Below, piece after piece: positions 57,291-60,450 of a stretch of DNA of 64,000 nucleotides; the first letter of the stretch is position 1; the number at the start of each line of letters is the position of its first letter. The stretch comes from Eledone cirrhosa (taxonomy: Eukaryota), in assembly GCA_964016885.1 (NCBI GenBank), contig OZ024741.1:100936001-101000000 (forward strand), given 5' to 3'. Position numbers and translations under genes: made by a program. The notes under the pieces are model-generated. The model ran no database searches. It worked only from the letters and a program-made list of their open reading frames with translations, and was not told where the DNA came from.

Positions 57291-58970
57291 ACATCTCTTA
57301 GGGATTTCAAAGTTTCAATACTTTATATTAAAAAAATATATATCTTTCCTTTTTTTTAAATACTTTTATTAATGCATATTTTTATTTGTTAGTACTTTCA
57401 TTTACTGAATATGTTTGATTTCTGTTTGTAGCAGGCTAAACGTAAACGCAGACATTTTATTACTACGCCTTGCAGTTTCATGTTGATAATGAATAATATC
57501 AATCAGGAAAATACTATAGATTTTCTACAGGCACGCAATAAAAAAAATGAAACTTTAAATTTTCTTTTAAATATCGACATAATAAATCAGTCTAACAAGA
57601 GCCAATAAATTTAGTTCCGTCCATAGCATGCAATATTCCTTACAAACCTCAAGTGTCTTACTAAAAGATCGTTAGTAACAGAAATAAAATGTGAGAGTGG
57701 TACTTATATATTTATTTTCAAAAGAAATGAACATATTTATAGATATGCCTGTATAAATATTGTTTTAATCTTGGACATTCCTAGTTGTCTATTTATTGTC
57801 CTTTTATTATATAAGAGGGTTATTATATCATCTGACTATTATTTCTAAAAGGTCAAGCGCACCTGTAGAAGCTCCCTTGCTTGGTCACATGTGCACTTTA
57901 TCTAATTTTCTAAAACAAAATATATAAAATTTGAGAAAAGCGGCATAATAAAAATTGAAACTAGCAATAATTGGGAGCGCAATAAAAAAAAAATGGTGTC
58001 CCTGGAGCAGCATCGAACAAATGCCCTATGATATTTAGTTACGACTCTTTACGTTCAAATCCCGCCGAGGTTAACTTTTCCTATCATTTTCTAGGGTCGA
58101 TAGAATCGACTTAATTTCCGCTCAAAATGTCTGGCTTTGTGCCAATATTAGAAGGGATTATTATGGACTACTGTATTTATTTCTCACTCTCCATCATGGA
58201 ATAGTTATGCCTGATGAAGTATGTATGAACCTGAAACTCCTGAAGAATTCCTAGGAGTGCCATATTGACATATGGCGTTTTTAGGGCATTTTAAAACCTG
58301 CCAAAGCCCATCTCAACTCCAGGTCTGAATACAGCAGATTTCTTCCAGAGAAGGATAGACAGAAGAGATATAGAGGAAGAATCGATCCCAGTACTAGACT
58401 GATACTTTTTTTATCGACCTTAAATGGATGAAAGGCAAAGTTGATTTCGGTGGGATTTGAACTCAGAGAGTAGAGAATCGGATCGAATACTGGAAAGCAT
58501 TCTATCCGACGCCCAAACGGCTCAACCAATTCGCCGCCTCTAATGAAATATACTGTTAACTTATTAAGCTAAGATTGGTGAAAATAAAAACAAAACAAAA
58601 CAAAAATACGATTTAAAGAAAAATATACGTAGCCGATCTCGCGGACCCTTGCAAAGCGCCGAGGGGTCTACGTTAGTATAATCAGTGGTGTGTTAATGTG
58701 CGGAGATACTAGAAAATAGCTCCTAAAATAGGGTGAAGACCCTTAGAGACGGAAAAAGGAGTTGCCAACTTTTTTTTTTGTTAAAAATACGATTATTTAT
58801 TTGGAAGTTTTCAGAAGAGAATGTATGATTGGAGATATGTCTATTTTACGACAAGTATTAAAAAAGAAGACCATATATAGACCATATATATATATATATA
58901 TATATATATATATATATATATATATATACAATATATTAATAAATGGAAACTATATTTATAAAACCATATT

Positions 58971-59036
58971 TATTTTATTATATATATTTCAAGGGCAACC
59001 AGGGCAAATTATGGTGCGCTTTCATCAGATAAAATA
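58971..59036 (-). ncRNA. Type I hammerhead ribozyme motif, copy 1
   Basis: Minus strand: UAUUUUAU-CUGAUGA-stem II (AAG.GCA...UGC.CUU)-GAAA-U-AUAU-AUA-AUAAAAUA; 8-bp stem I and palindromic AUAU loop 3. Confidence 0.75.
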
Positions 59037-59610
59037 CAGATTTGTTTTATAAATAAATATTGACATATATAAATATATATATATAAATATATATATACAA
59101 ATATATATATAAATATATATATATAAATATATATATATATATATATATATATAAATATATATATATATATATATATATATATATATATATATATATATAT
59201 ATATATATATATATATATATATATATATATATATATATATATAATATATATATAAATATATATATATATAAATATATATATATATATATAAATATATATA
59301 TAAATATATATATATATATAAATATATATATATATATATAAATATATATATATATTTATATATATATTTATATATATATATATTTATATATATATATATA
59401 TTTATATATATATATATTTATATATATATATATATTTATATATATATATATATATATATATATATATATATATATATATATATATATATAATATATATAT
59501 ATAAACGGAAAAAATGAAACGAAATGTACGTGTACATACTTATATATATATAAATATATATATATATACAATATATTAATAAATGGAAACTATATTTATA
59601 AAACCATATT

Positions 59611-59676
59611 TATTTTATTATACATATTTCAAGGGCAACCAAGGCAAATTATGGTGCGCTTTCATCAGATAAAATA
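59611..59676 (-). ncRNA. Type I hammerhead ribozyme motif, copy 2
   Basis: Direct repeat of copy 1, 640 bp away; loop 3 reads AUGU. Confidence 0.72.
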
Positions 59677-59809
59677 CAGATTTGTTTTATAAATAAATAT
59701 TGATATACCCGGAAAAAAGACAACCTTAACGGTTGGAGCTTCCTGGGTGTCAATATTTATTTATAAAACAAATCCGGGTATGTCAATATTTATTTATTAA
59801 ACAAATCTG

Positions 59810-59875
59810 TATTTTATCTGATGAAAGCGCACCATAATTTGCCTTGGTTGCCCTTGAAATATGTATAATAAAATA
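59810..59875 (+). ncRNA. Type I hammerhead ribozyme motif, copy 3 (inverted)
   Basis: tattttat CTGATGA aagcgcaccataatttgccttggttgccctt GAAA t atgt ATA ataaaata. Confidence 0.75.
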
Positions 59876-60450
59876 AATATGGTTTTATAAATATAGTTTC
59901 CATTTATTAATATATTGTGTATTTACTCCACTAATTGTTGAGTGCTTTATATCAGTTATAAAATTTTTAAGCTTGTTGAATCCCAACAAATTAAATATAA
60001 CTTCTGCATATATATATATATATATATATATATATATATATATATATATATATATATATATATATATATATATATATATATACATATATATATATATATA
60101 TATATATATAGATATATATAGATATATATATATACATATATATATATATATATATATATATATATACATATATATATATATATATATATATCTCTATATA
60201 TATATGTATATATATATATCTATATATATCTATATATATATATATATATATATATATATATATATATATATATATATATATATATATACACATATATATA
60301 TATATATATATATATATATATATATATATATATATATATATATATATATATCCAAAGAGTGTAACTTGGAGTTACTGTAGGTTCACCCGGGTGAGCACTA
60401 GATGTTTAGGTTCACTTCAGTGTCGAGGTGTAGAGCTAGACAGAGTGTAT

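Follow-up and report, generated by a model that had tools for sequence, protein, structure and literature searches.

In this study, we have analyzed a 64,000-nucleotide (nt) stretch of the genome of the octopod Eledone cirrhosa (GenBank assembly GCA_964016885.1, contig OZ024741.1, forward-strand positions 100,936,001 to 101,000,000), in which a 66-nt type I hammerhead ribozyme motif occurs three times. This whole stretch is called the window here, and positions are counted from its first letter. Our preferred interpretation, to which we assign a probability of about 0.7, is that all three are hammerhead folds of type I lying in short, truncated and inverted insertions of the Penelope-like element (PLE) type, all from one abundant octopod repeat family. 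The interpretation draws on copy comparison, predicted folds and the variation of the family in sequencing runs. On this evidence, the locus neatly preserves the anatomy of PLE-type insertion; it is not a new system.

Hammerhead motifs in the window

A descriptor scan of both strands placed the motif at 58971-59036 on the minus strand (copy 1), at 59611-59676 on the minus strand (copy 2) and at 59810-59875 on the plus strand (copy 3), with cleavage predicted after positions 58979, 59619 and 59867, respectively. These are the places given by an earlier, sequence-only reading of the same DNA, and the scan also recovered every component that it had described: an 8-bp stem I, CUGAUGA, a basal stem II of 3 bp, GAAA, a 2-bp stem III and an AUA cleavage triplet, with loop 3 being AUAU in copy 1 and AUGU in copies 2 and 3. 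All three copies therefore carry the type I core (CUGANGA, GAAA and a U-H cleavage site), surrounded by three helices with stem I open (stem I of 8 bp plus a further 12 bp, stem II of 3 plus 6 bp and stem III of 2 bp). With loop 3 restricted to short lengths, only these three cores were found across the 64 kb; a first, broad descriptor had returned two additional weak matches elsewhere in the window, which were lost under this restriction. Among 100 dinucleotide shuffles of the window, none contained a motif with a stem I of at least 8 bp, and five contained one with a stem I of at least 4 bp. The check by Rfam hammerhead models that the sequence-only reading had proposed came out negative: the RF00163 hammerhead search gave no match to the three copies, either at the gathering threshold or at E ≤ 10. 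Over their common 140 bp, copies 1 and 2 differ at three positions, copies 1 and 3 at three and copies 2 and 3 at two.

The predicted fold extends beyond the 66-nt motif. Stem I resumes on the far side of a 7-by-6-nt internal loop as a 12-bp helix, which is perfect in copies 1 and 2 and has one mismatch in copy 3, where the extended hammerhead spans 59791-59893 on the plus strand (distal helix, 59791-59802 paired with 59882-59893). Stem II consists of 3 bp, a C.C mismatch and then six further pairs, an interrupted 9-bp helix. Stem III and loop 3 form a perfect 8-nt palindrome in copy 1 and one with two G.U pairs in copies 2 and 3. The 66-nt motif alone folded no better than its shuffles (z scores of -0.83 and -0.29), and the 103-nt extended form folded modestly better (z scores of -2.26 and -2.06).

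Other hammerhead-like stretches were seen in the window. A single minimal-hammerhead-like motif at 63676-63712 on the plus strand has U4 changed to C, a 4-bp stem II and a palindromic AAUU loop 3, and folds no better than shuffles. A degenerate CUGAUGA...GAAAC stretch at 58211-58250, also on the plus strand, lies in a repeat that has a related second copy (76%) at 53284-53354.

An abundant and divergent repeat family

Among the 16 sequencing runs listed, 12 contain part of the segment 59545-59990, and 3 of these contain half or more of its words; no RNA run is among the listed carriers, and six runs with small shares (organisms D to I) were given no weight as evidence. Four runs, designated X1, X4, X6 and X14, were aligned to the 311 bases of 59680-59990 at 80% likeness. 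Alignments were obtained for 6,880 contigs in X1 (organism A), 57 in X4 (organism B) and 5 in X6 (organism C), one of the last covering 110 bases with three differences. In X14, a restriction-site-associated DNA (RAD) library from organism A, 31,859 of 12.47 million reads aligned, and one third of these were less than 90% alike, revealing divergent subfamilies. Since a single-copy locus would yield only a handful of contigs, the family is likely to number thousands of divergent copies. Read pile-ups in X14 at 59856 and 59839 were considered as ribozyme ends and rejected, since they fall at what appear to be restriction-site-like words in a RAD library; for the same reason, X14 depth was left out of any use as a copy-number measure. 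Exact-pattern scans of metagenome and viral contigs, collections that are not expected to contain octopod DNA, gave no match.

The variation among these copies is unevenly distributed over the fold. In the 40 of 100 variant rows that were listed, 15 positions vary within 59791-59893, and none of them is among the 13 core positions. Variants occupy 2 of the 61 positions in the core, stem I, distal stem I, basal stem II and stem III, compared with 13 of the 42 in the loops and distal stem II (Fisher P = 1.2e-4). As for the two exceptions, T59798A restores a pair and is found in 99% of X1 depth, and A59870G turns an A-U pair into G.U. The loop 3 alleles AUAU (G59863A, 51% of X1 depth) and AUGU are about equally frequent in the listed rows.

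In one contig from organism B, both partners of G59829-C59851 are changed to give A-U (each at a depth of 86.6). C59830T (863 reads) and G59850A (637 reads) in X14 are compensatory only if they are in phase, and the variant table gives no phase. When loose ends were read by eye, distal stem II was seen in two or more further self-complementary forms, and one core had a changed N7, the sole free core position. The core is avoided by all of the indel rows listed (12 of 21). These sequence patterns support selection for a hammerhead fold on the master-copy lineage.

The AAUAAA that the sequence-only reading had placed over the cut site is present in copy 3 at 59867-59872 but is polymorphic, being disrupted by A59870G in 41% of the summed X1 depth. 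No variant is listed for a further AAUAAA, at 59872-59877.

Organization of the locus

Comparison of the copies showed that copy 1 (58928-59067, minus strand) is a 140-bp unit that is truncated at its 5' end 39 nt upstream of the core and has (TA)n on both sides, its 3' end adjoining the array at 58884-58927. It is separated from copy 2 by a (TA)n/TAAA array at 59068-59567 that includes about 50 nt of other sequence, is found once and does not make up a repeat unit. Copy 2 (59568-59746, minus strand) comprises the unit together with the segment 59713-59746. That segment, which could be taken for a spacer, is, judged by its joins, copy 2's own upstream sequence: relatives carry it in the same orientation, and in all four runs it is joined to 59773 on the opposite strand. 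Copy 3 (59774-59918, plus strand) is inverted relative to copy 2, the 5' ends of the two adjoining. A 33-bp partial tandem duplication lies at its 5' end (59748-59780, plus strand; 59748-59774 compared with 59781-59807, 96%), and its 3' end is continued by an 89-nt extension (59919-60007, plus strand) with two predicted hairpins, beyond which lies the (TA)n array at 60008-60351. At this locus only copy 3 has the extension; since other copies read on through 59969-59990, it is best regarded as something that members of the family may have or lack.

The junction at which copy 2 gives way to the inverted copy 3, located at 59747-59755 from X1 depth, lies where the 5' part of the element is imperfectly repeated in inverted orientation, and a template switch may have produced it. 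X1 depth falls from approximately 88,000 at 59735-59745 to 23 at 59747, and the window's own junction at 59747 is supported by about 5 of that depth of 23 in X1 and by 10 of 17 reads in X14. In the runs compared, no contig or read spans the stretch from copy 2 to copy 3; the three-copy layout rests on the assembly. The junction sits in a hairpin-forming stretch, part of the hairpin being created by the junction itself; a native hairpin is suggested by the family continuation, which is supported by one to six contigs.

A bacterial terminator scan, a tool that is not suited to this host, marked a 5-bp hairpin followed by six T residues on the element's sense strand at 59713-59735 (minus strand). 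A hairpin with such a T6 run would stop RNA polymerase III. The run is thus a feature pointing to polymerase II or read-through transcription.

Insertion anatomy

All three 3' ends at the locus run into (TA)n, and loose 3' ends at 59905, 59913 and 59922 enter (TA)n in three of the four runs (X1, X4 and X14). Summed X1 depth declines steadily toward the 5' end, from 790k at 59823-59833 to 291k at 59790-59800 and 88k at 59735-59745, which is what truncation during reverse transcription predicts. Further inversion joints, from 59746 to 59880-59941, were present in several X1 contigs, and copies 2 and 3 themselves form a divergent pair that has the extension on one arm and ends in (TA)n. In the published footprint, PLE copies are truncated 5', adjoin an inverted and likewise truncated copy on that side, carry a tail of 30 to 40 bp at one end only and show a bias toward (TA)n, the last being described for Neptune, Hydra and Naiad PLEs (Craig et al., PMC8557442). 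Opposite-strand hammerhead pairs 100 to 700 bp apart have been reported in truncated PLEs (PMC4209133). Copies of the family span the cut site with no drop in depth there, in agreement with work on an anole PLE in which uncleaved RNA is the insertion substrate and the tail is linked to two internal reverse transcriptase (RT) start sites (Frangieh et al., PMC11167929). In Octopus vulgaris, 31 PLE families have been recently active (PMC13282606).

The same layout is repeated by an unrelated, GC-rich fold-back element at 60352-60711, which lies about 350 bp from copies 2 and 3. Its divergent arms are 85.8% alike, (TA)n lies at both ends, and an extension of about 100 nt is found on the left arm only. 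The right arm contains a hammerhead core with a palindromic GCGC loop 3, a GUC triplet and AAUAAA. The element scores 25.2 bits with Rfam Hammerhead_1, under the 34-bit cut-off, and the 5' strand of its stem I is missing at the inversion junction. Another fold-back adjoining (TA)n, at 60815-60938, has arms that are 85.5% alike and GAAAC motifs, with no clear hammerhead core.

The sequence-only reading had proposed a noncoding, self-cleaving retro-unit. A noncoding repeat of PLE-like insertion anatomy, with a motif that appears to be constrained, is retained from that reading, but its assignment to the minimal hammerhead class and its 640-nt circular RNA, both discussed below, are not.

Proposed mechanism and evidence against it

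The family likely inserts into (TA)n by means of PLE RT and GIY-YIG machinery encoded elsewhere. Uncut, or religated, ribozyme RNA would be reverse transcribed from two kinds of 3' start, approximately 40 to 55 or 100 to 140 nt past the cut site, giving copies without and with the extension, and an early stop of copying would leave a 5' truncation. Where the 5' part forms hairpins, a template switch would join a second, inverted copy, so that copies 2 and 3 would represent one event, whereas copy 1 would have entered that (TA)n array on its own. As a monomer the ribozyme is predicted to be a weak cutter, with dimers, formed through the self-complementary stem III and loop 3, performing better; this would trim the master transcripts, and the ribozyme would be kept intact by selection on master copies rather than on this locus. 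Dimer cleavage of PLE hammerheads has reportedly been described by Lunse et al.

Several observations weigh against this interpretation. The motifs depart from the consensus of the minimal PLE hammerhead, which has a helix I of 4 to 5 bp, an extra base between positions 9 and 10.1 and a G10.1-C11.1 pair (PMC4209133): here helix I is 8 plus 12 bp, there is no extra base after A9, and 10.1-11.1 is A-U, not G-C. The minimal class favored by the sequence-only reading is therefore abandoned. The minimal PLE traits that are present are the palindromic 15.2-16.2 pair with loop 3 and a long helix II. The canonical 6-bp/4-bp geometry of retrozyme hammerheads is likewise not matched. In addition, the predicted minimum is 3.3 to 4.5 kcal/mol more stable than the hammerhead fold, and stem III makes only a weak dimer helix (-2.2 to -3.2 kcal/mol), because of which cleavage is predicted to be slow and probably assisted by a dimer or a protein. 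For Xenopus retrozymes, in vitro cleavage failed with eight of nine predicted dimers (10.64898/2026.07.22.740005). The one-sided extension, at 89 nt, exceeds the published PLE tail.

Among 190 frames that run from stop to stop in the window (109 of at least 42 amino acids from 52 to 64 kb and 81 of at least 72 amino acids elsewhere, frames rich in IY, CV or TH repeats having been removed beforehand), Pfam gave no RT or GIY-YIG match; the matches were to histone H3, to a weak LINE (long interspersed nuclear element)-type endonuclease fragment and to faint candidates. For this reason, the mobilizer is inferred from the anatomy alone and the family is not assigned to an autonomous PLE clade. As to the quantitative evidence, summed depth does not measure copy number, the position classes were defined after the variant table had been inspected, and its remaining 60 rows lie outside the count. 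Finally, the commonest stem II changes in X1, G59829A (20% of depth) and T59849G (36%), do not form a compensatory pair in the register used.

Alternative interpretations

The alternative with the most in its favor, although we judge it unlikely, is that the copies are dispersed monomers of a non-LTR retrozyme (LTR, long terminal repeat), tandem arrays of which would make a circular self-cleaving RNA of 200 to 300 nt elsewhere that was reinserted here. Retrozyme hammerheads likewise have a long stem I interrupted by an internal loop and a stem III of 2 bp closed by a tetraloop, the archetypal loop contacts are missing from those of mussels too (PMC7229834), single monomers often occur in the retrozyme families of vertebrates (10.64898/2026.07.22.740005), the intact cut site would fit a ligated circular template, and such an origin is compatible with mobilization by PLEs. 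However, none of the joints listed (15 of 43) is head to tail, there is no tandem array at the locus, and the 3' ends enter (TA)n at several points instead of a next monomer.

A more specific proposal in the sequence-only reading, that copies 2 and 1, transcribed together from the minus strand, pair as an intramolecular dimer, so that two cuts free a functional, circularizing (UA)n-rich RNA of 640 nt, is in our view very improbable. Its geometry is as described: the two sites are on the same strand, the cut-to-cut interval is 640 nt, of which 428 nt are in (TA) runs, and a stem III helix between copies 1 and 2 would have eight pairs (-3.2 kcal/mol). Nevertheless, this interval is unique, has a GC content of 6.9% and is mostly microsatellite, and known animal retrozyme circles are tandem monomers of about 170 to 400 nt (PMC7229834). 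Copies 1 and 2 also differ in their 5' extents and 3' flanks, copy 1 lacks the upstream segment of copy 2, and copy 1 carries the other family-wide loop 3 allele. A 640-bp segmental duplication was rejected because the 3' flanks differ. Given the differing ends and flanks, the other allele and the unique interval, two separate insertions into one (TA)n array are the simpler explanation, and the 640-nt RNA is not upheld as a functional unit. Double cutting of a read-through transcript could occur in principle, as modeled, and nothing points to selection for its product.

That the ribozyme is dead, its fold persisting merely through recent amplification from one master copy, has an equally slight chance of being correct. 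The A10.1-U11.1 pair on a 3-bp basal stem II, the weak stem III and the lack of an Rfam match would fit a dead ribozyme, and PLE hammerheads are poor cleavers in vitro (PMC4209133), but divergent subfamilies (the third of X14 reads below 90%) retain the core and rebuild distal stem II, and natural hammerheads tolerate changes at 10.1-11.1, even U10.1-U11.1 (PMC3088659). Least probable of all is an assembly artifact, in which a long-read fold-back or echo around (TA)n made the extra copies. The unspanned stretch and the thin support for the junction between copies 2 and 3 are what such an artifact would leave; against it, the copies differ at two to three positions and in their ends, only copy 3 has the duplication and the tail, and the same kind of inversion joint recurs in other X1 contigs. 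The argument of the sequence-only reading that the copies differ too much for a simple echo is borne out by these differences.

PLE-type insertion being preferred, a bolder form of it can be offered tentatively, as possible but short of an even chance: that the repeats are an uncatalogued, noncoding family resembling short interspersed nuclear elements (SINE-like), nonautonomous, dispersed and octopod, of approximately 190 to 280 nt, consisting of hardly more than a 5' hairpin, an atypical extended hammerhead (stem I of 8 plus 12 bp, A10.1-U11.1, exchangeable distal stem II) with its own design of tertiary contacts and an optional tail. PLE proteins that target (TA)n would have raised such a family to thousands of copies by way of an RNA that is circular or has been cut and religated, and the family would stand midway between the 3' ends of PLEs and tandem retrozymes.

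Comparison with known systems

The hammerheads of PLE pseudo-LTRs and truncated PLE 3' ends (Cervera and de la Pena 2014, PMC4209133; Craig et al. 2021, PMC8557442) share with this family the type I topology, the palindromic stem III and loop 3, thousands of dispersed and variable copies, opposite-strand pairs, an inverted 5'-truncated neighbor, a one-sided tail and the (TA)n target. They differ in the length of stem I, the base after A9, the 10.1-11.1 pair and the tail length, as set out above, and no open reading frame (ORF) is seen here. Hydra-1_Obim, a Hydra-clade PLE of Octopus bimaculoides (PMC8557442), is similar in its octopus host, its (TA)n insertion and its hammerhead near the 3' end. 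Its sequence is different, and the Hydra-clade hammerheads listed have a stem III of 3 to 4 bp with loops of 1 to 3 nt, in contrast to 2 bp and a tetraloop here. In the available part of the supplement of PMC8557442, none of five short words of this family occurs, nor does the core word in a hammerhead context.

Animal non-LTR retrozymes (Cervera and de la Pena 2020, PMC7229834; Li, Clavereau and Pollet 2026, 10.64898/2026.07.22.740005) are, like this family, noncoding and short, with a type I hammerhead that has an extended stem I and a 2-bp stem III, and their mobilization by PLEs has been proposed. Unlike those elements, the locus has no head-to-tail array of a fixed monomer, and its stem II is 3 bp, a C.C mismatch and a long helix, compared with 4 bp and a loop.

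Hammerheads in PLE ends and retrozymes are already known across animals, including cephalopods, and those in (TA)n-targeting octopus PLEs have been published; in the giant squid, 235 Rfam Hammerhead_1 loci are recorded (PMC6962438). What this family adds is a very abundant member that Rfam misses. No description of it was found in the literature on octopus or cephalopod hammerheads or PLEs, although one may exist in Repbase or Dfam, in papers behind subscription or in supplements to PMC13282606, PMC4209133 and PMC7229834; in the available main text of the 2026 octopus repeat annotation (PMC13282606), the words "hammerhead" and "ribozyme" have zero occurrences. Since it is RNA in its uncleaved form that serves for insertion in vitro, the purpose of PLE hammerheads is in question, and the divergent copies would provide a good set of natural variation with which to address it.

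Other features of the window

An intronless, histone H3-like ORF (Pfam Histone, 3.8e-44) lies at 61368-61777 on the plus strand and begins where a (TG)n run stops. It has several substitutions that we take to be unusual for H3, and it is possibly a pseudogene. On the minus strand, at 48345-49181, a 278-amino-acid ORF shares 84% identity with a protein of Octopus sinensis and 66% with one from Argonauta; it has a hydrophobic N terminus and a faint EF-hand match, and four homologues were found, both of the named ones being octopod. LINE-type endonuclease fragments are present at 14042-14595 on the plus strand (Pfam Exo_endo_phos_2, E = 2.6e-4), among them the weak one at 14344-14595.

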